DNA of 32,000 nucleotides, from positions 222,919 to 254,918 of the forward strand of contig NC_010632.1 of the NCBI RefSeq assembly GCF_000020025.1, given 5' to 3'. The notes under the pieces were generated by a model. The model was given only the letters and a program-made list of their open reading frames with translations. It did not search any database and was not told the origin of the DNA. This stretch comes from Nostoc punctiforme PCC 73102. GTDB lineage: Bacteria > Cyanobacteriota > Cyanobacteriia > Cyanobacteriales > Nostocaceae. Of this stretch, positions 6,499 through 25,821 are shown piece after piece (position 1 is the stretch's first letter; each line of letters begins with the position of its first letter). A program made the position numbers and the translations under genes.

Positions 6499-7041
6499 TT
6501 TTTATCTAAACTAAAATTTGGAAATACAAGTTTTTGGGCTGACTGACTGAGAAACAAATATCACTCAAATTATTGCTGTTTTTTCTCGGTTTCACGCCTA
6601 TTTTAAAGCCAAATCGCTCAAATACGAAAATGGGGAAATAACCGTAGTAAGTACGACTATCTTAAGCCACCTACAGCAGTTCTGAGGCATTCCACAGGCA
6701 ATTCTCCCGCTATCCCCAAGATTCCCTTAGTAGCATAGTCACTCTTGACACAATTTCAGCCTAAGTAGGCAACATCCGGCTTTCTGTGATTTGGACTAAA
6801 AAACTACGCAATAGCAAGGCTTTCGGGCTGTTTAACTGTCAATAAGGCTTGATTAATGAGAATTAATGGACTGCTCACAGAATTTTTCGAGAATTACTCA
6901 AGAATAAAATGGTTGACAACGGAATTTTTTAGCAGTCCCTCGAAGTTAATCAGCGCTAAATTGTAATTTTTAGTAGTGTTTCGTAGCACAAACAGAAAAA
7001 AAACTGTTTTTTGAAGTACAAAAACAATACTTTTGTAGTAG

Positions 7042-7075
7042 GTATTCTCAATAATTTCAAGCCTATTGAGAATAC
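7042..7075. repeat. Perfect 12-bp inverted repeat (hairpin with a 10-nt loop) in the non-coding region
   Basis: gtattctcaata (7042-7053) / tattgagaatac (7064-7075). Confidence 0.8.
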
Positions 7076-7145
7076 AAGAAACTGGACAAATCGCCTCAAA
7101 GCTTTTTGGAGTAAGTTATAGAGGGCAATTTTTCAAAAAAGCGAT

Positions 7146-7288
7146 GTGCAAAATAGCAGACATTTTGTACCTGATTATGAACATTTGATGACAGATATAG
7201 CAGTTAAAGGCGTGTATAAGCGGTGCAAAATAGCAGACATTTTGTATATAAATAGGGGTTTTATGTGCAAAATGTCTGCTATTTGTAA
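7146..7288. repeat. Three copies of a ~24-bp element (two direct and identical, one inverted). Candidate protein-binding iterons, centromere or operator.
   Basis: gtgcaaaatagcagacattttgta occurs at 7146-7169 and 7223-7246 (24/24 identical). gtgcaaaatgtctgctatttgtaa at 7265-7288 carries the 11-bp core atagcagacat inverted. Half-site-like pieces (acatttg, atagcag, acattttg) lie at ~7181-7204 and 7302-7309. Confidence 0.8.
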
Positions 7289-7585
7289 CTGTGATTAGTA
7301 ATACATTTTGACCACGTAAAAGCAAATAAAACCCCGGTAAATTAGTAGGGATTTAAAAAATGAGGGACTAAGTGAAGGATTAGAAGAAAAAATGCGGTGT
7401 TGTATGTGCATTCATTATTAAGTAAATACTTTATTTAGGCAGACAATATAAATTTCAGAAGCCAAAATATTAAATTTAGTTAAGTTAGGCAGTATCAAAG
7501 TAAAAATAAAAAAACTGGGCGATAAAAATTAGTGTAATAATTTTAAGAAAGCGCGTTACGCTAATCAGAATTTTAGTCAAAAAAA

Positions 7586-8086
7586 ATGAATGATTCTAGA
7601 TATAGAGTAGTGTCATTTAGAAGACCGAGTGACAGTGCAGATGCAGAAGTAATTGATTACTTGAGGTCAAAGCCTTTAAATTTGAAGGAAGATTATTCGG
7701 AAACAATTACATCGACACTAAAAAAACACTGGCTACCTCTAGCCTTGTTTTCTTCGGGGCTGAGGGGAGAAGAATTAAGACAGATTGGCATTTGGGCAAT
7801 TAGTCAACTAGAAGCACAAATTAGTATGATTCGGAGAACTTGCGGGATAGCACCAGATCCACTAGTGGTGACATCAAATATATCAATGCAAGCATCAAAC
7901 ATAGTGGCATCAGATAGTCTATCTGTCTTAGGGATTACTTCAGGAGATGGGCAAATAAGTTCTACTGATGAGGAAGATGAAGACCATGAAGATGACGATG
8001 ACGATGAATTTCTTTCCTCGCAAAACTTTCAAGAGATGACCGACATTAAGCGGATGTTTGGCTGGAACAACCAGAACGGGGGCTGA
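7586..8086 (+). CDS. Hypothetical 166-aa protein with a poly-acidic C-terminal tail, possibly a DNA-binding adaptor for the downstream actin-like ATPase
   Basis: The ORF ends 2 nt before the next start (8089). The N-terminus YRVVSFRRPSDSADAEVIDYL could be a ribbon-helix-helix strand plus helix (weak). The tail is DEEDEDHEDDDDDEF. Confidence 0.55.
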   Translation: MNDSRYRVVSFRRPSDSADAEVIDYLRSKPLNLKEDYSETITSTLKKHWLPLALFSSGLRGEELRQIGIWAISQLEAQISMIRRTCGIAPDPLVVTSNISMQASNIVASDSLSVLGITSGDGQISSTDEEDEDHEDDDDDEFLSSQNFQEMTDIKRMFGWNNQNGG

Positions 8087-9146
8087 AGATGAATAAAAAA
8101 AATAATTCTAAAGACTACACAAAAGTTGCGATAACGATTGATTTAGGGACAAGTTTTCAGAAGGGGATAGCACAGATTTATCCAGATGGGGTTCCAATAG
8201 TTTTAGCAATGGAACCAGAAATAGCGGATTTAGGGGTAGAGTCAATAGAATATTTGTCAAATCAACTTGTACAAGATACGACGGTATGGATAGGGATTGG
8301 CGAAGAATACTATGTCCTGGGAGCATTAGCCAAAAGTATGTTCGCGGGGACATCAGCTATTAGAGATTTGAAGTATCAATATGCCTTACCGAAAGTAGCA
8401 GCTATGTTATGGTTGGCAATTCGGCGGCTGGGAGTGAAAAATCCAGATATAGAGCTATATGTACATTTGTTGTTGCCAGTGGGAGAAGCGTCGGATGGGC
8501 AAACGCTCAGAGCAAAACTAGCACAGAACTTAAAAACAGGAATAATCACGCCAACAGGGAGGTTAAAAGCAAAATTGCGTAGCTTTGATGTCAGTCCAGA
8601 AGGGGCGGGTATCATGGCATATCGCAGTCGCAACGTCAACATAAACTATTTCCAAAAGAGTATAGGAATGCTGATGTTAGGCTATCGTAATGCCAGTTTT
8701 ATTCTGTCGCACAAGGGGAATGCAATAAAAGCTGAATCTACAGATTTAGGGATGAATTGGGTGGTGCATCAGTTTGTAGAACGTACTGCCGTAGGTTTAT
8801 CAAAAGATGACTTACGCCTAATTTCAGCTTTAGCCGAAACCACGAATAACAATTTTGATGCACTGCGGTTTCTATCACGCAAAACCAAAATCGAAGAAAT
8901 CAATGCTGATGTAGAGTTGTTTTGTCGGATTTTACCGATAGTTCGCAAAGAGTACTGCCGTGCTTTATGGCGCTGGTTGAGAAATATTGCCCAAATGGAT
9001 GAAATCTTAGTTTGTGGTGGGACAGCATCTTTTATACGCCAAGAGCTAACCGAACATTTTGATGGTGAAGGCATCCCCATTTGTTGGAATGGCGGAATGG
9101 AACTACCTAAATATTTAGACACAATGGGATTAGGTGATAGGATAGC

Positions 9147-10785
9147 AGCAATTCTCATTATGAGAATGGTTATCAATATGTTAAGAGCGAAACTAACCGA
9201 TGAAGCCTGGGAGACGTTGAGAATTCTGCTGAATGATAAATTTGAACTAGGAGTGGCTACTTCAAACAGATTTTTAGACACAATGAACTACCAAGTAATA
9301 CATGGCAATTCAAGCTAATTCCATGTATTACACGGAGTTGTAAGTATTCTCAAAAAGTAAGATGAATTTTCAGCTTGTGTTGGGATGAAATTCTAATTCC
9401 AGTCCGTGGATCATAAAGTTAAGCAGACTTTCCCAACTATCAAAATAAAGATAACGAGTTAAGGCGCGTAAATCATCAAAGAAGGTCTTGCGTGTTGGTA
9501 AATGCTGGCGGATAAATTGGTATTTCTCATCTATAATGTCAAGTAGAGTATGAAACAGAAATGCAAGGATATTAAAGGTTGCTAATAGGGAGGATAAATG
9601 CGTTTTCCCATGTCCGAAATTATGTTCTAAGTTGTAACCTTTGGTTTTAAGAGTGTTATTATTTTCGTTTTCTATTTTCCATCTGCTGCGACCATCTGAC
9701 ACAATCGCCTCAACATTAATATCTGTGATTCGATGATTTGTCGCAAAGGTATTTTTGTAGATTATAGTCCCATCAGAGCGAGTAATGGCCAATTCACACC
9801 AGTTTACTAATAAAGCATCCTCGCTATTCCGTAAAGGAATTTGGTTGACATAACGGTAGGTATAAATCTCATAGACTTTGCCCTTCCAATGTTTGACACT
9901 AAATGTATCAAGGGGCATTCCTTCTAACCATTCATAAAGTGTTTTATGGGATTTAGACCGACACACTAGAATGAAATTTAGTTTTTCTTGTAGTAATAAT
10001 TCACATAAAGGTTGATGGCAATAAAGATCATCTCCTAAAATGGTAATACCAAGAGATGCGTACTGTTTGGCATATTTCTGAATCCAACGTTTTGCTGCCG
10101 CATTCTCACAATCCTGCTTTTGATATCCGTCTTGAGGGACAACAAACTCTGGTATTAACGGGATTACTTGAGAATTACTAGGACAAACAATTACTGGTGT
10201 CACCACAGTATGAAAATACTGAGTTGTTCCGTTTTTAAAAGTTCTGCTCGAACAGTGTTCACAGTGAATTTCATTGGAGCAAAAATATTCTGTTCCATCT
10301 AGAGCTATCAGCAAATTATTTTTAAAAGAACGAAATTTTGATAAGTGTTTACCATTCTCTAATGCTTTGAAAATCTTGGTAAACACCGGAAACACAACGG
10401 TTGGTTCTATCTCATCAAGTAAATCTCGGATATGGTTATCGCTTGGAATTTGGTGTACCCCAAACAAGCTTTGAGCATTATTATGTCCCTTACTATGTGC
10501 CATTGACCTTTGATGGGCAAGAAAAGAAGGACTCTGAGTAAAAAATATGGAGAATGCGCTTAATGCTGCATCACTCATTTGATAGCGTTTGTTTTTGCCT
10601 GTTCGCTTATCAGGTAAATCTTTCAGGATTGACTGAAAGTATTGTACTATTTCGTCAAAAATTCCTGGCTGATTCAAAAAAGCTCCTGCGTTCGCGAGTA
10701 TTGAGATACAAAAACCATACCTTTAACTGAAAATTTTGCATAGATGCTAATGATAGTTATAATCATTCTCATGATGAGAATTGCT
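9147..10785 (-). mobile_element. IS4-superfamily-like insertion sequence, 1639 bp, with an 11-bp direct target duplication
   Basis: The TSD gataggatagc occurs at 9136-9146 and 10786-10796 (11/11). The ~33-bp terminal IRs are agcaattctcatTatgagaatgGttatCaAtat and the reverse complement of the right end, agcaattctcatCatgagaatgAttatAaCtat. It carries a single intact transposase ORF. Confidence 0.88.
9370..10677 (-). CDS. DDE transposase (IS4-like / ISNCY-like; exact family not assignable by eye)
   Basis: 435 aa. Motifs: LIALDGTEYF, ILGDDLYC, GRSRWKIENENNNTLK (an RxxxE-type signature). It lies between the IRs described above. Confidence 0.85.
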   Translation of the reverse strand: MNQPGIFDEIVQYFQSILKDLPDKRTGKNKRYQMSDAALSAFSIFFTQSPSFLAHQRSMAHSKGHNNAQSLFGVHQIPSDNHIRDLLDEIEPTVVFPVFTKIFKALENGKHLSKFRSFKNNLLIALDGTEYFCSNEIHCEHCSSRTFKNGTTQYFHTVVTPVIVCPSNSQVIPLIPEFVVPQDGYQKQDCENAAAKRWIQKYAKQYASLGITILGDDLYCHQPLCELLLQEKLNFILVCRSKSHKTLYEWLEGMPLDTFSVKHWKGKVYEIYTYRYVNQIPLRNSEDALLVNWCELAITRSDGTIIYKNTFATNHRITDINVEAIVSDGRSRWKIENENNNTLKTKGYNLEHNFGHGKTHLSSLLATFNILAFLFHTLLDIIDEKYQFIRQHLPTRKTFFDDLRALTRYLYFDSWESLLNFMIHGLELEFHPNTS

Positions 10786-11245
10786 GATAGGATAGCTGAT
10801 GCTTGGGCATCCCATATTAGCCATATCAAGTTTTTGGATCATGAATTGAGCTATGACCGCCAAGACAAACCCCTAGTTCCTGATTATTATGTTCAACCAT
10901 TCAAGAGTTCTAAACCAGACATGGAGATTTGGCAAAGGAACGGTTATATCACTACAAGCTAAAAATAGGGTGTTGGGGGTAGGGTGTTGGGTGTAGTGAA
11001 GACGGTATTGGACTGAGCTTGGAACTCCGACCAATGCAAACCAGAGTGAAAAGACAGGGCTTGTAACGAATCTATGTTGTTGTACAAATGCTGTCTGATG
11101 TTAGACAGATATTCTGTCTAACATCGCCAAAGCTAACAAATGCAAGGGTTTAGCTTTGAATGGTGTTTCCCTCCGCTTAATCAACAATTGCTCAAGATGG
11201 TTGAGTCAAACAATAAACGCGAACAATTAACATTAGCAAATTGAT

Positions 11246-11656
11246 ATGGCTGAAACGACACATTTGCAGGTACAAGAATTATCACGATTTGCCCAAGAGC
11301 AAGACTTCAATCAGCAATATAGACAGTATTTCGGGGATGTCTGGGACGAAGTTGGAGTTAGAGATATCTCCAAAATGACCATCCAAGATGCCGAGCAAAC
11401 TTTGAAGGTACTAGCTGATAGTGAAGCATCTCCCCAATTCATTAAATCCCTACTAGCACAAGCAGCAATTGATGGTGCTTCACCGCAGGTTTTAGAGTAT
11501 TTTCTCGCAAGCGACATTGACTCAGATGGGCGGACTCTGGCACAAGAATTATTTCAAGATGGGACGAACCCATTGCAGCCAGATATACCCCAAGCACCAC
11601 CCAAGGCACAGGTTTTATCTCCATCTCCAACTGAAGATTTGGACTGGGAAATATAG
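11246..11656 (+). CDS. Hypothetical, strongly acidic 136-aa protein
   Basis: The ORF is followed by a hairpin plus T-run. About 24 D/E versus 8 K/R. No recognisable motif. Confidence 0.5.
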   Translation: MAETTHLQVQELSRFAQEQDFNQQYRQYFGDVWDEVGVRDISKMTIQDAEQTLKVLADSEASPQFIKSLLAQAAIDGASPQVLEYFLASDIDSDGRTLAQELFQDGTNPLQPDIPQAPPKAQVLSPSPTEDLDWEI

Positions 11657-11674
11657 CATATATTCTCAAACTTT

Positions 11675-11727
11675 ACTAGCAACCTGAGCTTTGATTTTTT
11701 CAGTACTCAAGTTGCTAGTTCTTTTTT
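11675..11727 (+). terminator. Rho-independent terminator candidate
   Basis: Stem actagcaacCtgag (11675-11688) / ctcaAgttgctagt (11706-11719), 14 bp with 1 mismatch, followed by tctttttt. Confidence 0.55.
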
Positions 11728-11853
11728 GAAAGCATATTTAAACTTCTTAAGTTAGATACGAGTTCCATTTTTCAAAAAGCACACTAGGGTGTAATTGAAT
11801 TATCGATTACACCTGTTCCCTCAGTTAACTCAACAACTAAAGAAGGCCATAGT

Positions 11854-12228
11854 ATGACTATATTAGGTATTAATAGACCTTTAGATACAACCCAGGCAAA
11901 ACTGTGGGATGAGCGCGATTTATCTACAAGCGATCGCCGCCGGGAGCATCTAGAAATTCTCCTGTGCCAGAAAGTACAAATAGGTGAAGACCCCGCCTTA
12001 TGTAAACAAGTGTTGAATTATTTGTATTTCTCGGCATTTCAACAGAATCTGAATCGTATTACTGTCCAAAAAGAGAAAGAAAAGTCGGTTTTTGCATCTG
12101 TACAGCAAGTGATTATTACGTCCTTTGCTATTTTAGGAATGTTTGCGTTCCTTGCCGCCGCTTCCAACAAGTCAGTTGTGCGATCGTCTGGGGTAATCCC
12201 TCCAGCTATAGAACGGCAAGCCAATTAA
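11854..12228 (+). CDS. Hypothetical 124-aa protein with a C-terminal hydrophobic segment
   Basis: ORF only. IITSFAILGMFAFLAAA looks like a TM helix. Confidence 0.45.
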   Translation: MTILGINRPLDTTQAKLWDERDLSTSDRRREHLEILLCQKVQIGEDPALCKQVLNYLYFSAFQQNLNRITVQKEKEKSVFASVQQVIITSFAILGMFAFLAAASNKSVVRSSGVIPPAIERQAN

Positions 12229-12522: not shown

Positions 12523-13053
12523 TTAATATGCTGTGTCCTTGTCGAAAGGCAAACTGTCTTCCGGCTCAAAGTTACGCAGGTCTTGCTCCATCTGCTGCCG
12601 ACGTTGGACGTATGTTCTGCTAGCGCCAATCCTTTCTTGCATTTCCTGTTGACCGAAATTGATACCCATTTCAGCGTGTTTGGCTGATACTCGATTGTAG
12701 TTATCGACATCAATTTTCTTACGCCGTTCCATTTCCTCTAACCATCCAAGGCTTTTACCTTTTTTAAGCTCAGATTCAAAGTATTCCTGTTTAAGAGAAC
12801 CGTCAGGGTTAAACTGTGTTTTCTCTGTTGGGGTGAAGAAGTCGTATGCCGTGTAGACAGGCCAAGGTTCTGGGTCGGTTTCGTCTAGATGTTTCCACTC
12901 GTCATATTCTTCTTTCAATCTACGAGCATAGTCATCGACTGCTGCTGGATTTGAGCCAGTAGATATTTTTTGTTGCCTTACTTCATCTTTTAAGGTTCCA
13001 TCTGAATTGAATTCTTTACGGTTCATATTTATCCAGCGTTTTATTCTTGACAT
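12523..13053 (-). CDS. Hypothetical 176-aa charged protein, divergent from the giant ORF
   Basis: ORF only. There is an internal duplication of a short motif (EFNSDGTLKDE / QFNPDGSLKQE). Confidence 0.5.
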   Translation of the reverse strand: MSRIKRWINMNRKEFNSDGTLKDEVRQQKISTGSNPAAVDDYARRLKEEYDEWKHLDETDPEPWPVYTAYDFFTPTEKTQFNPDGSLKQEYFESELKKGKSLGWLEEMERRKKIDVDNYNRVSAKHAEMGINFGQQEMQERIGASRTYVQRRQQMEQDLRNFEPEDSLPFDKDTAY

Positions 13054-13101: not shown

Positions 13102-16100
13102 ATGACTCTTGAATTTAAACACTTTGACACGAGAATAAATCAATGGATTCATGATGACGGAGACAAAAATAATCCTGATTCAATTTTAACTGAGAAAATA
13201 GATAATACCCTATTAGAATCATATTTTCCAGATCAAGAGTTTTCTTTCGGACATATTGATGAATATAGTAAAGCAGAAGATTTACAAAATCATCCAGAAG
13301 GACATATTCTTTTATTATCTTCTAAAACCAGACTCCTCTATGGCTCTCCAGAATGTTTAGAAGTAATTGATAAATTATGTCCCGATAGAAAAGATAGAGG
13401 TGCTTATGGGTCGATTTTCCTAGGTGGTTGTAAAAATTCCATTAATGAAAAATTAAATATTCTAATTGTGAATGATATTACAGGAGAGAATGGAGGATTT
13501 ATTAAAGATGAGGATGCTTTCAAGTTAGTGGGCGATTGTTATGGACAGATATCAACTAAACTTTATGACCGTTTGACCCAAACAGAGCAACAACAAAATA
13601 AAGATTATCATGTTATTCAGCATCGCTTTGGTTGGACAGAAACTGATGGAGAAGATAACCAATATCGTTTTGGCAAAGGGACTTTACGACCATATAAGTT
13701 AGATAAAGTAGAATATTTAGACCCAAAGATTAAATCCAAAATTGACTTAATCATTCCCATATCCAGTTTTAAAGGTACAGACAAGGATAATCCTAATGGT
13801 GCTAGTAAACCCCAAATTAAACCAGGACTATATCAGCAAAAAATCTGGTTAGGTGAAAAATCGCAGTCAGAGCGAGGTCAGACAGCCATATCACAACTGT
13901 TGGCATCATTTCCTCAAGGGATCAAAGATTTCGCTGAGGAGCTAGAGGCACAGGCTCAAAAGCTAGCCGAAAATCAGGATGACCCAAGGATTGTTGCACA
14001 ACTTTATTGTGAAAAATACGAAAAGCGTAAGGCTTTGACTGAATCACAGAAAGCATCTTTATCAAAGCAAATTACTAAGCAAGCTGGTGATGGCTCATTA
14101 GCTAAACAATTAGAACTAGTGACATCGAATGATGCTGATGGAGAATATGAGATAATCGATGAAAATAATGAATCACCGAAAGATAATTTGTTGATGTATA
14201 AACTCATAAAGGCTGATTTAGTTGGGGGGCATAATCAGCTTTTAGAAACTGAAAAAATTAAACAAGAACTGAGTAGATTTGTCCAAAGCGAGTGGAGAGA
14301 TATAGCATCTGGGAGAACTTTAATATTTGACCGAGGAATGATTATCCCATCCAAAGAACTGAAAAATGGTGAAATCTGTGTTCCTTGGATGGATGATGGA
14401 GAAAAGGTTCTTAATTTTCGTTCTCCATTCCTCAACTCTAATGGTTTATGTATATCCACTAATAAACTTGTTGATGATAGATTAGCCCCAGATGGGGTAA
14501 ATCTTAAAGGCATTATAGTAGTCAATGATGAAGATCATAAACGCATTTTAGCAAGGCTTAAGACCAATGAAATTGCGCCAATTGAAACCGAATCAGAACG
14601 GCAAGCGCGAGATTTTGACGGTGACTGTATTGGCGTGGCGCTGGCTAGTAAATACCCTAACCTGACAGCAGAGGCAGAGCAAAGAAATCTTCCCAAAAAC
14701 GCCTATTCGCCCACGGTTAAGCTCAAAAAACAATCATTTTATTTGGAAAATGGAACCCAGCCCCCATTTGAAAAAATCGCTATTCACATGAGCGATAGCA
14801 TCAGCGTGGGCATAATCAACAATCAAGTGACGGCACTGGAGGCATTAGAATCAGAAATTGAAGTACTAAAGACTTACGGTACTTTTGAGCAGAAATCAAA
14901 TTATCTAGACCAAGTTTCTAACCATTACGAAACCCTGTTTGAGCAAGAACGCCAGAAAGATCCAAAGTTAATTCGAGAAGAATACAAGCCTTATATGCAA
15001 GGAGTTGTTGAAATTGCTCATTCTCAAAGAACTCCCGAAATTATCCAGCAAGCGATGGACATTAACCGTCAAATGTACCGGAGCATGATTGAAGAAGGAT
15101 GTTATCAAAACCAAATAGCGGTTGATTTATTCAAAAGTGCTAAAAAACCTGAGATGGATAAAATCCGGGAAAACAGCCGCTACTTGTATCGTGATGTTAA
15201 TTATATTAAAGATAAAAAGTCGCCTTCAGTTTATCTAAACACGGGGATAACACCAAAGGGCTACTCACCAGTAGAATTATTAATTAGCCAAACCAATAAA
15301 TATTTCCAAGAATCACAGTTAGAATCGCGTCCCATAGTTCAGTTTAAAGACTTGTTCAAAGGGGTAGAATTTACACCACAGCAAAAATTTGCAGCGATCG
15401 CCGCGAAGTACGAGTTCGATCTGAAATTCAACGCTGCGGTTCGTGCCTCAAGGCGGCGAGAAACAGAGTCTGGCCCTAGCGCAGTTGTTCAAACGGATTC
15501 AGGAACGCAACTCGAAATTACCAATCTCACCCGTTACGGGCATCCCTTAATCTGGAAAGCCCAGACACTTAATATTCGCCTAGATGAGATTAAATTCACA
15601 AACAGTGAACGCCCCCATAAATTATTAGCAGTTGCACAGATAGATGGTGAGATTGGGGAAAATGGAAAACCCGCCTACCGCAACCTGGGGACAGTTAGCC
15701 AACAATCTGTGACTGACCACAACCTCAAATCGGGGATGACCATGCAGGGAGCTAAACTCCTAGAACTAAAACCAGAACTTACTAGAAGCCAAACTAAATT
15801 ACTTTTCGACAAGGCACAAGAGGCGGCTCTCGCATTTTACGCTTCTATCCCAGAGTCAGAAAAACTTGCATCCGCCGCCGCCGCTTGGAATATCTGTGCA
15901 TCCCGCCAGGATGAACTCGAAGTTGCACGTAAAGAAAACGCAAACCCCCAGGCGATCGCTAAAAAAGTCTCCAATTTTGCTTTCGCTGCTTTCCCCAATG
16001 AGATTATCTCCCGCTTGGAGAAACTGCAATTTAGCGAACCGAAGTTAGTCACACTTAATAATGAAGCAAATCAATTTTTGGGCAGAAAGTGGAACCCAGA

Positions 16101-18282
16101 GGAAAAACACCCCATAGAAATCAGAGCTAGCCACCACCCACCGGGACATGAACGCCACGTTTCCAGACTAATGTTTGTCCAGGATGCTGACGGCGAATAT
16201 AAGGAATTCGCCATGCTCGAAACCAGGGGCGGAATGTTACCAATTGGCTCAAAGGCGCAAGCTAATTTCATTGGGGTAGAACCTGCTACTGCCAAATCTT
16301 CTATTGGACTGCCAGGAAACGAGTCGGTTGAAATTACTATCCGTGAACTCAAGAACTTCTCTTATGCAGGACTTGTTTTTAACGCCGAACCCGTAAACTT
16401 AGAATTTGGCACTGTGCCGATTCCTGATAAAACAGTAAAAATCAAAATTGATGCTTTGACTCTGGGGGAGTTAGACAGTGATTCTGTCCAACAGTTAAAA
16501 CAAATTGATTACCTGAAAAATGGTAATCCTCTAAAGTTAAAACTTACTTCTATCTCCGAAACTGGAGATCAAGCTTTTGTCCTGGGTGAATCTCCTAATG
16601 GGAATCTCCTCAAAATTAATAAAATTAACTTTTATGATTTTTCTGGTCAGACATTCGATGATTTGGATTACCGAAAACTGACTATCCAAACCTCAGCTTC
16701 TAAAACCAGAGATGCCGTATTTTTAAATGGTGAACCCTTGGGGGTATTACACTTCAAAAAAGACAAAGACGCGCTCAGACAGCTTGGGCTACTCAAACCC
16801 AAACAAGTTACACCCGCGCCTGCAATCATTGAAAGTAATTTTTCTGTTATTTGCGCTCAAATTGACCCTAATACCGTCGAATATCCCCAGAAATGGACGA
16901 AGGAATTTCAGGCTTTTGGGACTCAATCAGTTAATTTTGAACAACAAGAGATGATTGAGAGTAGTGCGAATATTCTACATCATATTAAAGAGCGCCCTAC
17001 TTTCTTATTTTCGACAGAATCAAACAAAAAACTTGGAGTCATGGGCTTGGCTGTTGACAACCAGAAAGTTGATACTGTAACTAAATGGTTAACTGCTCAA
17101 AATGTTAAATTCTCGCTTGCCCCAACAGAAGATGTTATAAGGGAAACTAAAAAAGGTCTAGCGGTATTTAACTTGGTTGATAGCTCCATTCCTGCCAAAA
17201 CTTTAGAGAGCATGGCCAAGAAATTTGGGGCTGTGATTGAAACGGATAGTGAGTATCAACAAAGAGTTAATTCCCTCGCCACACGACCGCAGTTTTTGAA
17301 ACCTCCATCTCAATCAGCATTGTTCCCACCTCAACAAAGCGCTCAATTCCACCCAAACCAAGAGGTTCAAAATATCGCCCCTCCTGTCATCAAAGGCAAA
17401 CCGATTCCGATGAACTACCCTTTAATGATGCATGGCGACACTAATCCAATACTAGTAGATACTTGCATTGATGCGATGAGAGGATATGGTCGAACTCATA
17501 CCACCAGAGCTTATCAACCATACAAACAGTATGGGTTTAAGGAAGGTGATATTGCTCTGGCGACAGGCATTGATAAGCAAGTTGCCTTTCGAGTCGGTAA
17601 GCAGTATCAAATCACACCCTCTATGATTGCTGACCCCGTTTATCAACAGCAGTGGGCTGATATGGAAAAGCACTCACCCAAAGCATTACCAGAACTGTTT
17701 ACCGAAAAACAGCAGGTGTGGGGACTACATATTGAACCCTTGGGGGATTATGTGGAGGGTTTTATAGTCCCGTTTCCTGAACCACAAAATAGAGCCGCAC
17801 TTGAAGCAACAGTCCAAACTCAATCAGTTACTATTGATGACTTGAGAAATTGGTACAATGCCGCAGATAAGTTAGGGAAGTCGGAGAATTACAAAAAACG
17901 CATTGTAGAAGTGGCCAATCAGTTTAAAGCTGGTGAGCAATTGTCAGCCGAAGCGTTGACAGTAATGAATAAAGATAAATTTGAACTTGAAGCCATCAGT
18001 CGGTTGACTCAAATTGCTCAAAGGATTGGCATGGTTTGGGGTAAGTCTGATGAAAATGGTACTAAAGTCCAAGGGAAAATTTATGACTTGGCTTTCAATA
18101 CCCAGCAGAGGGATTTAACTATTTTGCAGAAAAATGGGGAAGTAGTTTTAAACTTACAATCTGGCAAGGTGCAGACTAATAAAGTAACTCCACAGATATT
18201 GCAAACTTTTGAGGATGCTAATACTCAAATTGATCAAATATTAGCTAAATCTCAAACACAAAAAACAGACTTACAAAGATAG
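13102..18282 (+). CDS. Giant 1726-aa multidomain protein. The N-terminal ~700 aa carries RdRP-like / two-barrel (double-psi beta-barrel) RNA polymerase motifs. The C-terminal ~1000 aa is unassigned.
   Basis: An uninterrupted 5.2-kb ORF. Colinear motifs: VGDCYGQIS (13528-13554), QYRFGKGTL (13660-13686), RGMIIPSKELKNGEICV (14332-14382), VLNFRSPFLNSNG (14407-14445), RDFDGDCIGV (14608-14637), QIAVDLFKSAKKP (15112-15150). The CDS call is very safe. The polymerase-family call is about 0.6. Confidence 0.9.
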   Translation: MTLEFKHFDTRINQWIHDDGDKNNPDSILTEKIDNTLLESYFPDQEFSFGHIDEYSKAEDLQNHPEGHILLLSSKTRLLYGSPECLEVIDKLCPDRKDRGAYGSIFLGGCKNSINEKLNILIVNDITGENGGFIKDEDAFKLVGDCYGQISTKLYDRLTQTEQQQNKDYHVIQHRFGWTETDGEDNQYRFGKGTLRPYKLDKVEYLDPKIKSKIDLIIPISSFKGTDKDNPNGASKPQIKPGLYQQKIWLGEKSQSERGQTAISQLLASFPQGIKDFAEELEAQAQKLAENQDDPRIVAQLYCEKYEKRKALTESQKASLSKQITKQAGDGSLAKQLELVTSNDADGEYEIIDENNESPKDNLLMYKLIKADLVGGHNQLLETEKIKQELSRFVQSEWRDIASGRTLIFDRGMIIPSKELKNGEICVPWMDDGEKVLNFRSPFLNSNGLCISTNKLVDDRLAPDGVNLKGIIVVNDEDHKRILARLKTNEIAPIETESERQARDFDGDCIGVALASKYPNLTAEAEQRNLPKNAYSPTVKLKKQSFYLENGTQPPFEKIAIHMSDSISVGIINNQVTALEALESEIEVLKTYGTFEQKSNYLDQVSNHYETLFEQERQKDPKLIREEYKPYMQGVVEIAHSQRTPEIIQQAMDINRQMYRSMIEEGCYQNQIAVDLFKSAKKPEMDKIRENSRYLYRDVNYIKDKKSPSVYLNTGITPKGYSPVELLISQTNKYFQESQLESRPIVQFKDLFKGVEFTPQQKFAAIAAKYEFDLKFNAAVRASRRRETESGPSAVVQTDSGTQLEITNLTRYGHPLIWKAQTLNIRLDEIKFTNSERPHKLLAVAQIDGEIGENGKPAYRNLGTVSQQSVTDHNLKSGMTMQGAKLLELKPELTRSQTKLLFDKAQEAALAFYASIPESEKLASAAAAWNICASRQDELEVARKENANPQAIAKKVSNFAFAAFPNEIISRLEKLQFSEPKLVTLNNEANQFLGRKWNPEEKHPIEIRASHHPPGHERHVSRLMFVQDADGEYKEFAMLETRGGMLPIGSKAQANFIGVEPATAKSSIGLPGNESVEITIRELKNFSYAGLVFNAEPVNLEFGTVPIPDKTVKIKIDALTLGELDSDSVQQLKQIDYLKNGNPLKLKLTSISETGDQAFVLGESPNGNLLKINKINFYDFSGQTFDDLDYRKLTIQTSASKTRDAVFLNGEPLGVLHFKKDKDALRQLGLLKPKQVTPAPAIIESNFSVICAQIDPNTVEYPQKWTKEFQAFGTQSVNFEQQEMIESSANILHHIKERPTFLFSTESNKKLGVMGLAVDNQKVDTVTKWLTAQNVKFSLAPTEDVIRETKKGLAVFNLVDSSIPAKTLESMAKKFGAVIETDSEYQQRVNSLATRPQFLKPPSQSALFPPQQSAQFHPNQEVQNIAPPVIKGKPIPMNYPLMMHGDTNPILVDTCIDAMRGYGRTHTTRAYQPYKQYGFKEGDIALATGIDKQVAFRVGKQYQITPSMIADPVYQQQWADMEKHSPKALPELFTEKQQVWGLHIEPLGDYVEGFIVPFPEPQNRAALEATVQTQSVTIDDLRNWYNAADKLGKSENYKKRIVEVANQFKAGEQLSAEALTVMNKDKFELEAISRLTQIAQRIGMVWGKSDENGTKVQGKIYDLAFNTQQRDLTILQKNGEVVLNLQSGKVQTNKVTPQILQTFEDANTQIDQILAKSQTQKTDLQR

Positions 18283-18331: not shown

Positions 18332-19096
18332 ATGGAGACAGCTAATCTAGAGCAAGCACAGGTTTCTTATAATCAAGGTTTGGCACATCTAAAGTCAGGT
18401 AATTTAGATGCAGTTATCGAGTGTTTTAGAGAGGCATTACTACTTAATCCTAATTTTGCTGAAGTTCACAATACTATAGGGATGATTCAGTTTCAAATCG
18501 AAAAGTATGAAGGTGCAATTCAGCTTTTTGATAACGCATTGTCAATGAATCCGAATTTTGCCGAAGCTTATAATAATCGAGGACTAGCTCGGTCAAAAAT
18601 CTGTCATAAATCAGAATTCCCCAAGGTGATTGAAGATTACACTAAAGCCATTGCCCTGAATCCAAATTTAGTCCAAGCTTATATAAATCGCGCTGATACA
18701 TACAAAAATCTAACTGGGGACAACCCAGCAGCTATCTTAGATTACAGTCAAGTAATTTCACTTGACCCAAACTGTTTATCAGCTTATATAAATAGGGCGA
18801 ATATTTATTTCTTGTCTGGGGAATTAGAAAAATCACTCTCTGATTTAGAAAAGGTATTATCTCTGGATACTGATTGTGCAGAAGCATACTGTGGACGAGG
18901 AACAGTCAGATTTTATCTGGGCGATGTTGAAGGTGCTAAAAAAGATTTGTTTAAAGCTTTTGACTTGTATAAGGCGCGAGGAAATATGGTTTACTGTGCT
19001 TTTACTCGAAGTCTCATTATGGAGCTTTTTCGAGATTTTGAAGTTTATAAGGATTTGTTTGGAGTTGAAAGTGAGATAGCCAAATCGAAAAAGTAG
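18332..19096 (+). CDS. Tetratricopeptide-repeat (TPR) protein
   Basis: At least 5 tandem ~34-aa units with the A..Y/F..AL.L.PN..A.YNRG pattern (e.g. ALLLNPNFAEVHNTIG, ALSMNPNFAEAYNNRG, AIALNPNLVQAYINRA, VISLDPNCLSAYINRA). An AGGAG Shine-Dalgarno lies 8 nt upstream. Confidence 0.88.
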   Translation: METANLEQAQVSYNQGLAHLKSGNLDAVIECFREALLLNPNFAEVHNTIGMIQFQIEKYEGAIQLFDNALSMNPNFAEAYNNRGLARSKICHKSEFPKVIEDYTKAIALNPNLVQAYINRADTYKNLTGDNPAAILDYSQVISLDPNCLSAYINRANIYFLSGELEKSLSDLEKVLSLDTDCAEAYCGRGTVRFYLGDVEGAKKDLFKAFDLYKARGNMVYCAFTRSLIMELFRDFEVYKDLFGVESEIAKSKK

Positions 19097-19122: not shown

Positions 19123-22100
19123 TCATCCGAGAATCTGAATTACAGCCGCCAGAATTGACGCTGCTTTATTGCCAGTTGGGACGAATACTCGCTTTTTCCA
19201 TTGAATGATCTCGGTGAAACATCCAACAGCCACCAGAGAGTCAGCCAACGAGATGGCATTCACTAGCTCTAGGCGTGCTTCACCAGCAACGAAAGACCGC
19301 CGCAGTGTGATTCCTCCCGGCAACTGCTGTGTATATCTCTCGTTCAGTACCAGCTTCACAAGTTCTTCTGGAGAAAGCACCTGGTTCCTTAGTCCGAGTT
19401 GTTCTCTGACAGTTTGAATGTCGTGAGCCGAAATCACCCGACCAAGAACTTTCTCGCCATCGCTGGTTTGCAATCGAAATACTCGACTGTTCTGCTGTGG
19501 CAGAGTTTTCCAAATCGGTAGAAGTATTCCAGTAATAAGGTGAATGTAATCAGTAGTGAACTGAGGCAGTTGGGAGATTTCCTTTGACCACGCTGCAACA
19601 AACGTATCAGCCGAAACCTGTTGCCAAGTGGAAGATTCCAACTTATCGACAGGTACGCGAGTCTCTTTCTGTGGTCGCACAAGTAAAACCCGTGGCACTA
19701 CCCCACCTTCAGAGTCGAATACACTGTGAGTAAGAATAAATACTGCGGCTTGACCAGATTTCCCATTAAGCATGAGTTTTCCCTGGTATTTGTCAGCAAA
19801 ATCCAACATCTCGTCAGATGTTTTGATGTTGTTCCTTTGGAGTCGCTCTACCTTGAGGTAATTAGTTACGCTGCCAGTCGTCGGATGAGTATACACCGAT
19901 TCACAACTTTCAACAGTGAACTTTTCAGCCCTCAGCGTTTCTACTCCCACTTCAAAAATACCATTGGCGATCGCAGTTTCAATTTGCTGAGAAAGCAACA
20001 ACTCGAACCGTTCGAAAATCACATTTTGCATCCTGATAGTCAAAGCCAGCAAGCGATTGAGGAATTGTCGCAACGGTGGGAGGTCTATCCGCATACCGCC
20101 TTCGTGAGATGTCAGAGACAACCCAGTCATCTGCTCAAAAGTCCCTAGAGGAACCTCATAAAATCGACCCTGGAATATTTGCTTGAATAACTCATACAAA
20201 GCGTACTCTGCGTACTGAGATTCTAGGTTATCCTTAGCCTCGAATATCCCGTTGCCCCCCGTTTGTCTCTGCCCCCGTGTGAGTGCGCCAAGACTGTCCA
20301 GCCGTCGAGCAATGGTGCTAATGAATCGACGTTCACCACGCACGTTGGTCGTCACTGGTCGGAATATTGGTGCAGACGCTTGGTTCGTGCGATGAGATCG
20401 CCCCAAACCCTGGATAGCGCTGTCAGCCTTCCATCCGGCTTCGAGTAAGTAGTGCGATCGCCTGCGACGATTGATCACATTCAAATCTGCGTGGTAGCTA
20501 CGACCTGTCCCACCAGCGTCACTGAAGATGAGGATTTGCTTGTCTCCCTGCATAAATGCGTTAGTTTCCGCAATATTCGCACCACTACCCCGTGAATCAA
20601 CAAACAAACGCCCCGAATCATCCTTGAGGACTCGCTTACTCCGTCCGGTAACTTCAGCCACTTGCTTGTTACCGAAATGCCAGAGCAGTTGTTCCAAAGC
20701 GCCTGGGATTGGGTCAAGGCTAGCTAGCCGCTCGACTAACGCCGAACGTAAAGCTACAGCTTCTTGAGAAATGATGGGCGAGCCATCAGCATTAAACAAT
20801 GGTTCAGAACGCTCTGAGCCATCGTCCCCTGAATGGATTTCATGCAAGTGAATTGGGAACGCACTCATCAAATACTCCATAAGATATTCTCGTGGGGTAA
20901 GGTCAAGATTTAAATCTTTCCACTCCTCGGACGAAACCTCATTAAGTCGCCGTTTCAAAAGTTCTTCGTTAGTGGACACAACCTGAACGACAACTGCAAG
21001 ACCTTGGGCAATGTCATGCTCAATTGCCTTAATTAACTGTGGACACTTCACCCCCGTCAACAAATGGTTAAAGAACCTTTGTTTGTGGCTTTCAAACTGA
21101 GACATTGCGCTCATCTTTGCAGCACGGTTAAAAGTCTTATCACCTGAGATATTGCAAGCTTCTAGTGCTTTTTGAAGGTTATTATGGATAATTTTGAAAG
21201 CGTCTGCGTAACTGTCGTAAATTCGTTCTTGAGTCGGTGTTAACTCAATTTCTAAGGTGTCATATTCCACACCATCAAAGCTGAGACTCCGCGCCAGATA
21301 CAGTCCTAAAGCCTTTAAATCCCGTGCCACAACTTCCATCGCCGCAATGCCACCGTCAGAGATGGATTCCACAAAATCTTCACGTGAAGTAAATGGGAAA
21401 TCCCCAGTCTGCCAAAGCCCCACGCGATTGGCATAAGACAGGTTAGAAACCTTTGTCGCTCCGGTGGCAGAGACGTATACAATCCGTGCCTTGGGTAATG
21501 CATTTTGTAGCCGTAACCCAACAATGCCTTGCTGGGATGCTGCAACCATACCGAGTTTACCCTCTTGAGCCATTGCGTTACCCATTGCGTGACACTCGTC
21601 ATAAGCGATCGCTCCCTCAAAATCAACACCAGCCCAATCAACGATTTGCTTGAGCCGACTTTTTCCACCCTTTTGAGATCGCAGAGTGGAATATGTACAG
21701 AACAAGATGCCTTGGGAGAATGGGATTGGATCGCCCAGCTTGATGTTCGAGAGGTCGATGATGTCTCGCTCAGTACCACCTAAAGCACACCAATCTCTAC
21801 GTGCGTCTTCGACTAGAGCAGAACTCTTCGATACCCAAATAGCTTTTCTTCGCCCTTGACACCAATTGTCCAAAACGATTCCTGCGACTTGTCTGCCTTT
21901 GCCACAGCCTGTACCATCGCCTAAGAACCAGCCACGGCGAAATCTTACGGGATTTTCTTCAGTATTTGCCGCCACAGTCACATTATCCCATGAATCATCA
22001 ACAATGTACGACCCAGACAAGAATTCTGAGTGTGCAAAACCAGCGTAAATCACGCTTTCAAGTTGTGCCTCTGATAACAAGCCTTGTGTGATAATATTGC

Positions 22101-23373
22101 ATGGAAGATGTGGTTTGTAACTAGGCGCTGGTGGCGAAACAAGTGCTAGGGCTGCGCTCTCGCAAAGTAATGAGGGATGTGGTAGGGCATCCTTGATCCT
22201 AATACGTTGTGGGCGATAGGTTTCGTACAAGGCATCTTTCAAACCGTCTGAGCCACTCCACTCGACCAATTCATACTCCAGAACAACCACATCTGGAATC
22301 TCTACGGAGGGTTCTGGTTGTGCGACTGTTTGACGCAAGGGTTGTTTAACAACTTTTGACGCAGTAACAGGAAGCGTTTTAACAGTAGAATGTTGCCATA
22401 AAGAGCGCTCTGGTAACTGCTTAATCAACGCCAGTATTTCGGGTAAATCCAAGGTTTCAGAGATGCAAGGAATGTTGCGAGGGTCAGCCGCCGGAATTTT
22501 TTCAATCACGGTAATCCTGGTTTCCATCGTCGTCCCGTGTAAAGCGTAGGCTTTTCCACTAACCCCAACCGAAAGCAGAACTCGCGCTTCCGAGTGCCAC
22601 TTAACGAAAGTCTCTTGCCAAGTTGGATTATTGGGAGAAAACCAATTAGCACTGATTGTCACCAGTCGTCCACCATCGCATAATCTTTGTAATGCTGAAT
22701 TAATATGACGAGGAGTTGCGTCGGGATTGCGATCGCTAATCTTGGGAGATGATGAGAATGGCGGATTCATCAACACAACTGAAGGCTGAGTCTTACCAGC
22801 TAAGTAATCGTTAATCTGCTCGGCATTCACAGAGAATAATGGAGTGCCAGGAAACAACCGACGCAGAATCTTCGCCCTATCGGGTGCAAGCTCGTTGAGC
22901 ATCAAACTTGCACCTTGAAGTTTGGCGAACTGTGCCAAAATTCCCGTCCCAGCAGATGGTTCTAGCACCAAATCATCAGTTTGTATTTGTCCTGCCAATG
23001 CTACCAAGTAAGCCAATGATAACGGAGTAGAGAACTGCTGAAGTTTGATTTGCTCCTCGCTGCGACGGGTATGTGTGGGGCAGAGCAACTCAAGCCGTCG
23101 CATTTCTTCTAAGGGATTATCAGAAAATCCCTTTTGCCGCAGATAGAGAATTAGTGCAACTTCTACAGCTTCGTAAGCATCTTTCCACTGCCACGCCCCT
23201 GATGCCGCAGTTCCGTTAAAATAGCGGTTCATCTGCGACTGAATTGCTCTGTTTGCCAAAGGTTGATTCTTGATCAATAATTTGACTAGTTCATGTCCGG
23301 CGCTGACAATGGATTGCCCGTAGTCTAAAACTGTTTGCACATTAAACAGTGAGCCTTGGATTGCATTAACCAT
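19123..23373 (-). CDS. Fusion of an N6-adenine-type DNA methyltransferase with a strawberry-notch (Sbno)-type DExH helicase
   Basis: LVLEPSAGTGILAQ (SAM motif I), VVLMNPPFSS (motif IV, NPPF), FLGDGTGCGKGRQ (helicase motif I), AIAYDECHAMG (DExH), VYVSATGA (motif III), IFSDAGGTGRSYHAD and QGLGRSHRTNQ (motifs V/VI). Confidence 0.9.
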   Translation of the reverse strand: MVNAIQGSLFNVQTVLDYGQSIVSAGHELVKLLIKNQPLANRAIQSQMNRYFNGTAASGAWQWKDAYEAVEVALILYLRQKGFSDNPLEEMRRLELLCPTHTRRSEEQIKLQQFSTPLSLAYLVALAGQIQTDDLVLEPSAGTGILAQFAKLQGASLMLNELAPDRAKILRRLFPGTPLFSVNAEQINDYLAGKTQPSVVLMNPPFSSSPKISDRNPDATPRHINSALQRLCDGGRLVTISANWFSPNNPTWQETFVKWHSEARVLLSVGVSGKAYALHGTTMETRITVIEKIPAADPRNIPCISETLDLPEILALIKQLPERSLWQHSTVKTLPVTASKVVKQPLRQTVAQPEPSVEIPDVVVLEYELVEWSGSDGLKDALYETYRPQRIRIKDALPHPSLLCESAALALVSPPAPSYKPHLPCNIITQGLLSEAQLESVIYAGFAHSEFLSGSYIVDDSWDNVTVAANTEENPVRFRRGWFLGDGTGCGKGRQVAGIVLDNWCQGRRKAIWVSKSSALVEDARRDWCALGGTERDIIDLSNIKLGDPIPFSQGILFCTYSTLRSQKGGKSRLKQIVDWAGVDFEGAIAYDECHAMGNAMAQEGKLGMVAASQQGIVGLRLQNALPKARIVYVSATGATKVSNLSYANRVGLWQTGDFPFTSREDFVESISDGGIAAMEVVARDLKALGLYLARSLSFDGVEYDTLEIELTPTQERIYDSYADAFKIIHNNLQKALEACNISGDKTFNRAAKMSAMSQFESHKQRFFNHLLTGVKCPQLIKAIEHDIAQGLAVVVQVVSTNEELLKRRLNEVSSEEWKDLNLDLTPREYLMEYLMSAFPIHLHEIHSGDDGSERSEPLFNADGSPIISQEAVALRSALVERLASLDPIPGALEQLLWHFGNKQVAEVTGRSKRVLKDDSGRLFVDSRGSGANIAETNAFMQGDKQILIFSDAGGTGRSYHADLNVINRRRRSHYLLEAGWKADSAIQGLGRSHRTNQASAPIFRPVTTNVRGERRFISTIARRLDSLGALTRGQRQTGGNGIFEAKDNLESQYAEYALYELFKQIFQGRFYEVPLGTFEQMTGLSLTSHEGGMRIDLPPLRQFLNRLLALTIRMQNVIFERFELLLSQQIETAIANGIFEVGVETLRAEKFTVESCESVYTHPTTGSVTNYLKVERLQRNNIKTSDEMLDFADKYQGKLMLNGKSGQAAVFILTHSVFDSEGGVVPRVLLVRPQKETRVPVDKLESSTWQQVSADTFVAAWSKEISQLPQFTTDYIHLITGILLPIWKTLPQQNSRVFRLQTSDGEKVLGRVISAHDIQTVREQLGLRNQVLSPEELVKLVLNERYTQQLPGGITLRRSFVAGEARLELVNAISLADSLVAVGCFTEIIQWKKRVFVPTGNKAASILAAVIQILG

Positions 23374-25453: not shown

Positions 25454-25821
25454 CTAAAACCCAATCCCCGAAACCGCTTTGCGCTTGAGCGCTTGAGCGT
25501 GACCTTGCTTATAACGCTGCAACATCTTAGGGTCGCTCTTACCAGAGATTTCTTGAATGGTTCTCAAAGGTATCCCCGCGCTCGACATCTGTGCTCTCGC
25601 AGTTCGCCTAAACAAATGAGTGCTGACTCCTTCTACCCCAATTCGCTTGCAGGCATCTCGTGAAATCTTGTCTACCATGAATCGGATCAAGCGTTCAGTC
25701 GCACCGCGCATACCTGGAAACATTGCAGAATTTTGGGTTGGTACTCGGTAAGTATTGCGGCTAGCCCTGGTGGGATGTCCACAATCCGGGTTTTATGCTT
25801 GCTTTTGGTGGTAGACTTTCT
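25454..25821 (-). pseudogene. Tyrosine recombinase (phage-integrase family) 3' remnant, N-terminally truncated and frameshifted
   Basis: The 25454-25723 ORF has STHLFRRTARAQMSSAGIPLRTIQEISGKSDPKMLQRY (HxxR ... Y). Upstream, in another frame after a TAG (25822-25824), it reads RKSTTKSKHKTRIVDIPPGLAAILTEYQPKILQ. The two parts need a 1-nt shift near 25723-25730. No N-terminal domain is present. Confidence 0.7.

Follow-up and report, generated by a model that had tools for sequence, protein, structure and literature searches.

A predicted two-barrel polymerase encoded across a candidate transfer origin from the MobV relaxase gene of a Nostoc punctiforme plasmid

Single-chain two-barrel polymerases are thought to stand near the ancestor of all cellular RNA polymerases (RNAPs). 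The bacterial and phage examples that surfaced with experimental data, namely YonO of the Bacillus prophage SPbeta, the crAss-like phage protein gp66 and the P23-45 tape-measure fusion, are all phage enzymes. YonO-like proteins, one of five families, are present in cyanobacteria (Ruprich-Robert & Thuriaux 2010, PMC2919709; repeated in PMC5467207), and cyanobacterial proteins resembling RNA-dependent RNA polymerases (RdRPs), some of them fused to RNase H, were described by Iyer & Aravind 2011, who proposed a primase role for the RdRP-like enzymes of selfish elements (both as related in PMC3417536). The gene considered here is found at 13102-18282 (+) in a 32,000-nucleotide stretch, termed the window, of the Nostoc punctiforme PCC 73102 plasmid contig NC_010632.1 (positions 222,919-254,918 of the forward strand). 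It is 5181 nucleotides long and encodes a protein of 1726 amino acids (aa), of which aa 1 to ∼740 are predicted by structure modelling to form a single-chain two-barrel nucleotide polymerase of the RdRP/YonO-like branch with a complete catalytic set. It is highly probable that the open reading frame (ORF) encodes a catalytically competent two-barrel polymerase. The best explanation overall, which joins this identity to a role on incoming plasmid DNA, is held to be moderately probable, as a compromise figure.

The ORF belongs to a kind already known in silico, since the 2010 and 2011 papers describe cyanobacterial RdRP-like proteins. A preliminary description, made from the sequence, had put it forward as possibly new; this was overstated, as a cyanobacterial YonO/RdRP-like branch, some of whose members have large extensions at the C terminus (RNase H among them), was known in silico in 2010-2012 (PMC2919709, PMC3417536). 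No enzymatic or genetic study of the cyanobacterial family turned up in the searched literature, and no description of the placement of the gene beside MobV relaxase and ParM-like genes was found in PMC2919709, PMC3417536 or PMC5467207.

An AlphaFold2 model of aa 1-833, built from a 33-sequence alignment, has a mean pLDDT of 85 and a pTM of 0.78 and displays two beta units, described as six-stranded. The polymerase module (∼aa 1-740; 13102-15321, +) is mostly above pLDDT 85 up to ∼aa 740. The first, beta-like barrel (aa 112-262; 13435-13887, +) has strands at 112-123, 147-151, 172-178, 189-198, 216-219, 242-255 and 259-262, and contains D145 (13534-13536), Q173 and R175 (R175 at 13624-13626) and K192-G193 (K192 at 13675-13677). 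The second, beta-prime-like barrel (aa 408-514; 14323-14643, +) has strands at 408-417, 424-426, 435-441, 450-454, 471-475 and 509-514, and contains R440-S-P442 (14419-14427) and the DFDGD metal-binding loop (aa 504-508; 14611-14625), in which D504-F-D506-G-D508 immediately precedes strand 509-514. The two are joined by a poorly conserved linker of 44 residues (aa 318-361; 14053-14184, +), which is the sole disordered part of the model (pLDDT <50) and displays no consensus in alignments A1-A3. Long helices follow both beta units at 567-592, 595-616 and 645-678; the helical domain behind the barrels (aa 556-738; 14767-15315, +) carries the invariant Q671-x-x-x-D675-x-x-K678-S679 (QIAVDLFKS). 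From the secondary structure and global alignments we infer that D504, D506 and D508 lie at the barrel interface. Absence of the SBHM 'flap' domain from the beta-like barrel is a trait of the RdRP/YonO-like branch (PMC7824862). As the first barrel comprises only ∼150 residues with short inserts in the AlphaFold2 secondary structure, there is little room for such a domain.

The model was compared by Foldseek with 350,542 PDB chains and with the BFVD viral models. Six full-length PDB matches fall below E 0.001 and all are cellular RdRPs (Foldseek probability 1.0): Arabidopsis RDR2 is matched at E 3.6e-8 (7eu1_M) and 8.9e-8 (7eu0_M), and Neurospora QDE-1 (7y7t, 7y7p and 7y7s) at E 1.6e-7 to 2.1e-6 over 858-910 columns with a query TM of 0.38-0.43. 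The multisubunit enzymes give local matches: NRPD1 (7eu0_A) aligns over 150 columns at E 9.7e-4, and further, weaker matches of 130-250 columns are to NRPD1, Rpb1 and the bacterial, plastid and archaeal beta-prime/A subunits. Structurally, the module is thus nearer to the single-chain RdRPs (RDR2 and QDE-1, ∼860-910 columns) than to multisubunit RNAPs. The best BFVD matches are phage proteins named 'RNA dependent RNA polymerase' (E 5.7e-11 to 1e-5). Fold and matches together support the earlier suggestion of a single-chain double-psi-beta-barrel (DPBB) polymerase akin to eukaryotic-type RdRPs and to beta-prime, and the comparison with QDE-1 and plant RDRs that had been advised as a check gave full-length matches to both RDR2 and QDE-1.

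The preliminary description had listed six colinear motifs in the ORF. Each is present in the 1726-aa translation where it had been placed: VGDCYGQIS (aa 143-151; 13528-13554), QYRFGKGTL (aa 187-195; 13660-13686), RGMIIPSKELKNGEICV (aa 411-427; 14332-14382), VLNFRSPFLNSNG (aa 436-448; 14407-14445), RDFDGDCIGV (aa 503-512; 14608-14637) and QIAVDLFKSAKKP (aa 671-683; 15112-15150). That they exceed chance is borne out by conservation, residues within them being the most conserved positions of the family. The second motif was right in part. Its K192-G193 is conserved and R189 of QYRFGKGTL is variable; the conserved arginine is R175, which lies in QHRFG with Q173. A hairpin of ∼13 residues, peculiar to the family, separates R175 from K192-G193 and thereby interrupts the RdRP-type Q-x-R...K-G motif.

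The residues invariant across all two-barrel RNA polymerases are, in Qde1 numbering, D709, R738, K743, R962, P964, D1007, D1009 and D1011 (PMC2919709). Their counterparts in the ORF are D145, R175, K192, R440, P442, D504, D506 and D508, and both the order and the barrel of each agree with that paper. Alignments A2 and A3 display R440, P442, N445, N447, G448, D504, D506, G507, D508, Q671, D675, K678 and S679 as invariant, while in the family alignments D145, Q173, R175, K192 and G193 reach a conservation of 90% or more. A profile search of 1.84 billion cluster representatives detected 434 clusters (50% identity) at E ≤1e-3 and 343 at E ≤1e-10. Conservation was counted in 137 newly retrieved proteins (P0197-P0333) among the best 150 cluster representatives. 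In the beta-like barrel D145 is kept in 93/94, R175 in 103/103 and K192 in 106/106; R440 is kept in 111/111 and P442 in 109/111; and the helical-domain residues Q671, D675 and K678 are found in 100/107, 99/107 and 107/107. The aspartates of the DFDGD loop, whose conservation in homologues had been advised as a check, are present in 94/107 (D504), 97/106 (D506) and 96/103 (D508), and some of the exceptions may stem from a preceding insert of variable length. All eight catalytic positions are therefore 88-100% conserved over this sample. The most divergent subfamily, with VTRSPLVNSNG and QADFDGDRLAF, comes nearer still to the canonical motifs.

Sequence profiles do not reveal the relationship. 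Neither NCBIfam nor PHROGs nor Pfam, with its RdRP model PF05183 and its RNAP models, gave a relevant match on the whole ORF or on six segments of it, so that the hmmscan check against PF05183 and the RNAP models, advised along with the structural one, was negative throughout. Searches of all PDB sequences by phmmer and by profile hidden Markov model (HMM), with the ORF, alignment A1 and the second-barrel sub-profile A5, returned noise only (FliS, SsdA). By hhalign the family profile has no significant match to YonO alone or to an 18-sequence YonO alignment (A7), the probability being 0.5%; the lone aligned segment (aa 415-446) is the expected homologous GE..RSP stretch, IPSKxLKNGEICVPW..GEKVLNFRSPFLNS against YonO. 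The relationship to the two-barrel polymerases is thus visible by fold alone. These negatives, and the likeness of FDGDxxG to the Toprim DxD motif of DnaG, are what could be said for a protein that is no polymerase, the motifs being due to chance, or belonging to a Toprim-type primase or nuclease, or surviving in an inactive scaffold. The Toprim reading of FDGD was rejected, as there is no Toprim match in Pfam and the full-length matches of the confidently predicted model are to two-barrel polymerases alone. An inactive scaffold is disfavoured because 137 diverse representatives keep all eight catalytic residues almost without change. Altogether, a non-polymerase is barely credible.

Named homologues are all cyanobacterial and mostly from Nostocales, with some from Chroococcidiopsis, Gloeothece, Pseudanabaena, Leptolyngbya and Crocosphaera; tblastn of 50,697 phage genomes gave zero relatives. 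Copies are found at 96 places on 84 PLSDB plasmids, usually one per plasmid and often on several plasmids of a strain; pCC7120alpha and pCC7120beta, both of Nostoc PCC 7120, are among the carriers. Plasmid typing places 56 of the 84 carriers as conjugative or mobilizable. The homologue on pCC7120alpha (NC_003276, 193773-198563) is probably all7191, a tag assigned by counting genes back from the relaxase gene alr7199; its sole mention in the searched literature is as a member of the co-regulated plasmid gene cluster all7191-all7223. The family includes the 'ribonuclease H' genes of Gloeothece (Cyanothece) PCC 7424 and 7822 (tblastn, coverage 97-99%, E 1e-105 to 6e-110), whose RNase H-fused plasmid proteins are homologous to the ORF over the entire polymerase module at 32% identity. 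With the known cyanobacterial RdRP/YonO-like proteins the ORF shares the host phylum and the proposed primase-like role, and homologues are found on the PCC 7120 plasmids alpha and beta. Unlike the RNase H-fused Gloeothece proteins, it has no RNase H and its C terminus is formed by a different set of domains. Two family fragments, P0052 (881 aa) and P0078 (504 aa), are found on the 8.36 Mb chromosome of Nostoc flagelliforme CCNUN1. They were named 'Ribonuclease HI' by the submitter, and the RNase H Pfam domain is absent from them; an integrated copy that has been disrupted probably accounts for the two, with the name taken over from the Gloeothece proteins.

The ∼990 C-terminal residues are a family-specific conserved region with a swappable tail. 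Homologues align with the ORF from residue 1, and the parts behind the polymerase module were followed by tblastn through 80 related loci, 40 of them with full flanks. The central region (aa 834-1400; 15601-17301, +), consisting mostly of beta-rich domains with one alpha/beta domain and many invariant columns, is found in 76 of the 80. The insert that follows (aa 1401-1553; 17302-17760, +) is variable and is found in merely 23; it comprises a Pro/Gln-rich low-complexity linker and then a small beta-rich domain containing GYGRTHTTR. The tail (aa 1554-1726; 17761-18279, +), formed of helices and a small beta domain, is again conserved and is found in 67. An AlphaFold2 model of aa 834-1726, of use domain by domain, has pLDDT 70 and pTM 0.32, with aa 1003-1393 at pLDDT ∼70-89, and its Foldseek comparison with the PDB yielded nothing below E 0.017. 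There is no Pfam or PHROG match to aa 834-1400 and no Pfam or PDB-sequence match to aa 1401-1553, and the tail has only a sub-threshold Pfam match to PLU-1. An ASCH/PUA-like domain, considered for aa 1430-1540, was not supported by Pfam, the PDB sequence search or the fold search.

Relatives reach 3686 aa. In 19 long relatives Pfam detects AAA_30/AAA_19 in four (one with UvrD_C_2), a cpYpsA SLOG domain in four, DUF4326 in three, YAcAr (likewise SLOG) in two, and RNase H and NADAR in one each; the helicases are RecD/UvrD-like. A Prochloraceae member, P0104, has PrimPol and PriCT-2 ahead of the polymerase module; the 2805-aa protein of Gloeothece PCC 7424 has RNase_H (aa 2188-2316) behind it. 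In the present ORF there is no RNase_H domain by Pfam, whether in the whole protein or in its segments. Since only one of the 19 long relatives scanned has RNase H, this domain varies as an accessory and is no defining trait of the family. The accessory-domain differences among relatives indicate that the polymerase and central region are constant and that the accessory domains are exchangeable. The fusion partners PrimPol with PriCT-2, RNase H and the AAA_30/UvrD-type helicase have functions in DNA replication or on RNA:DNA hybrids. Accessory-domain variety is seen in P0104, P0293, P0199, other long relatives and locus L084 (7001-15415).

As to the closest solved structures, QDE-1 and RDR2 are likewise two-barrel enzymes made of a single chain; they share the eight catalytic residues, have a DxDGD loop and are the best matches along the whole chain. 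The ORF differs from them in that identity is ∼11% and PF05183 is unmatched, in the hairpin that splits its QxR...KG motif, in the 990-residue extension behind the module and in its setting on a bacterial plasmid, where partners of RNA interference (RNAi) are missing. A reading in which the enzyme copies RNA into RNA, as part of a conflict or regulatory system that works through RNA (by amplifying antisense RNA, for instance), would suit the fact that RDR2 and QDE-1 are RNA-silencing RdRPs, and RNA-mediated regulation was raised as a possibility by Ruprich-Robert & Thuriaux (PMC2919709). This is nevertheless very unlikely: Argonaute, Dicer-like and other RNA-silencing partners were not found in the window or in the related loci, and the associated domains work on DNA or RNA:DNA hybrids.

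The surroundings of the gene are those of a plasmid backbone. Some 18 kb around it is collinear with several Nostoc plasmids, and on Nostoc plasmid pNLP1 a gene annotated as 'hypothetical protein' has 90.7% DNA identity with it. The MobV relaxase gene (4792-6498, −), with Mob_Pre and DUF3991 domains, matches Pfam Mob_Pre at 8.7e-36 and NCBIfam MobV with 168 bits (cut-off 100), and it points away from the polymerase block. Between it and orf166 lies an intergenic region of 1.1 kb (6499-7585), the repeat-rich part of which (7042-7284) is a candidate origin of transfer (oriT), operator or centromere. This part displays a perfect 12-nucleotide inverted repeat (7042-7053/7064-7075), an inverted repeat with 25-nucleotide arms (7228-7252/7260-7284) and three exact copies of the 15-mer ATAGCAGACATTTTG at 7153 (+), 7230 (+) and 7268 (−). 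The layout and spacing of the three copies recur in loci L013 and L044. The polymerase gene is across this repeat-rich region from the relaxase gene, and its block is transcribed away from the region. In F-like and IncP plasmids the leading region lies opposite the relaxase across oriT.

The block upstream of the polymerase gene (7586-12228) is co-oriented with it and interrupted by an insertion sequence (IS). It contains orf166 (7586-8086, +), a ParM/StbA-like ORF (8089-9318, +), orf136 (11246-11656, +) and orf124 (11854-12228, +). The ParM/StbA label comes only from the RefSeq annotation of homologous plasmids and was not confirmed by Pfam or NCBIfam. The ParM-like ORF is present in 46 of the 80 related loci and is linked to the polymerase gene in 32 of the 40 with full flanks; orf124 is found in 57/80 and orf136 in 29/80. 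The most constant neighbour, in 78 of 80 loci, is orf176 (12523-13053, −), which encodes a hydrophilic 176-aa protein and is divergent from the polymerase gene with a gap of 48 bp. The Tolypothrix and Gloeothece loci, at 32% identity, likewise have a small divergent ORF in this position. The orf176 product has no protein-family match in Pfam or NCBIfam and may be a partner or regulator of the polymerase. The order relaxase, intergenic region, ParM, small divergent ORF and polymerase is shared by pCC7120alpha and by a plasmid of Tolypothrix PCC 7712 whose module is 32% identical. On the MOBP-type Gloeothece plasmids a series of small ORFs in the same orientation, ssb among them, precedes the polymerase gene. 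According to PMC8600333, pCC7120alpha is the sole cyanobacterial plasmid for which transmissibility in vivo has been reported.

The favoured reading is that the enzyme would make primers, or carry out early transcription, on the single-stranded DNA (ssDNA) that is transferred. It is preferred because of the position of the gene across the candidate oriT, the linkage to ssb, the PrimPol, RNase H and helicase fusions and the DNA-templated activity of QDE-1, which has been described as DNA-dependent besides RNA-dependent (according to PMC9508822). In the predicted module the first barrel supplies D145, R175 and K192, and the second R440-x-P442 and the Mg-binding D504-F-D506-G-D508 loop. In the mechanism proposed, the enzyme would make RNA on plasmid DNA, most likely ssDNA, and would serve as primase or early transcriptase while the plasmid establishes itself after conjugative transfer. 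It would then be a two-barrel functional analogue of the conjugative primases Sog and TraC, and the primase proposal of Iyer & Aravind for the selfish-element enzymes would fit this role. The specific role in conjugative establishment or priming is put forward as plausible but tentative.

Several points weigh against this reading as a whole. No sequence-profile method, be it Pfam, PHROGs, the HMM search of the PDB or hhalign, ties the protein to RdRP, YonO or RNAP, and PF05183 is unmatched even at E ≤10 in the whole protein and in its segments. The geometry of the catalytic site is that of a predicted model, and the use of DNA or RNA as template, RNA or DNA as product and de novo initiation are all predicted properties. 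The sugar of the product could be either one, as PolD is a two-barrel DNA polymerase. The gene can be said to lie in a 'leading region' only by its position relative to the candidate oriT. Transfer of the protein to recipients, or its early expression in them, is conjectural. The ParM-like neighbour suits a maintenance or replication module equally well, and 28 of the 84 carrier plasmids were typed as non-mobilizable, with no recognised relaxase.

The last two points would also suit a primase or initiator of vegetative plasmid replication, acting at an origin beside the ParM-like partition genes with no special role in conjugation. Such a function agrees with the usual single gene per plasmid (96 places in 84 records) and the several carrier plasmids per strain, with the ParM/StbA-like linkage and with the PrimPol and PriCT-2 fusion in one relative. 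It is nevertheless judged improbable. Only alpha and beta of the PCC 7120 plasmids are among the matches listed (60 of 84), so that the gene is not known to be universal on plasmids; MOB-suite gives separate replicon clusters to two carrier plasmids; and what stays with the gene down to 32% identity is the relaxase-side layout or ssb.

The other functional alternative comes from YonO, which is, like the ORF product, a single-chain two-barrel enzyme of a bacterial mobile element and is a characterised bacterial relative, a transcribing DNA-dependent RNAP (PMC5467207). YonO displays TDGCG, LRSPHL (FRSPFL in the ORF), FDNDGD (DFDGD) and IDFAKT, within TIDFAKT (VDLFKS). It differs in being phage-borne and 839 aa long, and its relatives carry PF05183 whereas the ORF family does not match it. 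A YonO-type DNA-dependent RNA polymerase that transcribes plasmid genes from double-stranded DNA with no need of the host polymerase would have the same fold and catalytic residues as the favoured primase or early transcriptase. There is also a precedent in phages, where two-barrel RNAPs that form the N-terminal part of giant proteins carry out early-gene transcription (gp66 of a crAss-like phage and the tape-measure fusion of P23-45, as far as their descriptions go). A promoter-recognition module or partner was, however, not identified, sequence similarity to YonO is undetectable by hhalign, and the fusions and neighbours of the relatives are of replication type (PrimPol, RNase H, helicase, ssb) and not of transcription type. 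Transcription of this kind is accordingly regarded as unlikely.

The favoured role may be compared with two further groups of proteins. In the crAss-like phi14:2 gp66 and the P23-45 fusion, as these are described, a two-barrel polymerase is also built into a mobile-element protein of great size and many domains, and it is delivered with the DNA and acts first in the new cell; delivery of the plasmid protein would here be conjecture. These are phage structural proteins and not products of a conjugative plasmid, and structural matches to them are weaker than those to RdRPs, crAss-like proteins being among the weaker BFVD matches. Sog (R64) and TraC (RP4) offer a working analogy for what is proposed here, namely that a plasmid encodes, close to its transfer origin, a large protein which would make primers on incoming ssDNA. 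Their catalytic fold is Toprim or AEP, as opposed to DPBB in the ORF, so the resemblance is functional only. A more far-reaching possibility, speculative and rather doubtful, is that the plasmid has in its leading region its own two-barrel ssDNA-templated RNA polymerase or primase, perhaps delivered by the type IV secretion system, that primes the complementary strand and/or transcribes the first genes in the recipient. It would be a plasmid counterpart of the injected crAss-like and P23-45 virion RNAPs, and the swappable C-terminal domains would be establishment or anti-defence effectors. Variable, effector-type C-terminal domains in relatives (SLOG, NADAR, DUF4326, helicase) recall the polyvalent proteins of conjugative elements, which are reported to be scarce in cyanobacteria (PMC5512222); the terms 'RdRP' and 'double-psi' were not found in the text of that paper.

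The family is large (434 clusters), has intact catalytic positions, resides in plasmid backbones and is present in the genetic model Nostoc PCC 7120, where a member is on pCC7120alpha; the role of bacterial RdRP-like enzymes is therefore directly testable by genetics and biochemistry. If priming or transcription of incoming plasmid DNA proved true, a third, unrelated catalytic fold would be added to conjugative priming, and the origin of the eukaryotic RNAi polymerases would be tied to plasmid biology.

Other features of the window are as follows. Directly downstream of the polymerase gene is a gene for a 254-aa TPR-repeat protein (18332-19096, +), which accompanies the polymerase in just 16 of the 80 related loci. 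Convergent with the polymerase gene is a gene for a 1416-aa Strawberry-notch-type helicase (19123-23373, −) with AAA_34 and Helicase_C_4 domains and a weak methyltransferase-like N terminus; in several related Nostoc plasmids, too, Sno-type genes are annotated inside the matched stretches or close to them. An AAA ATPase is encoded at 3062-4684 (−), on the far side of the relaxase gene, in which the DUF3991 domain occupies the C terminus (aa 381-454). Accessory cargo comprises genes for a class I SAM methyltransferase (24560-25396, −) and a CheB-type methylesterase (30585-31595, +) and an 89-aa tyrosine recombinase fragment (25454-25723, −) that is probably a pseudogene remnant. The IS with its transposase gene (9370-10677, −) is missing from all 80 related loci and looks like a recent insertion that separates the ParM-like block from orf136. 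A further transposase gene is at 2011-2907 (+); between them, the two transposase genes of the window display a weak DDE_Tnp_1 with its associated domain, and DDE_Tnp_4.

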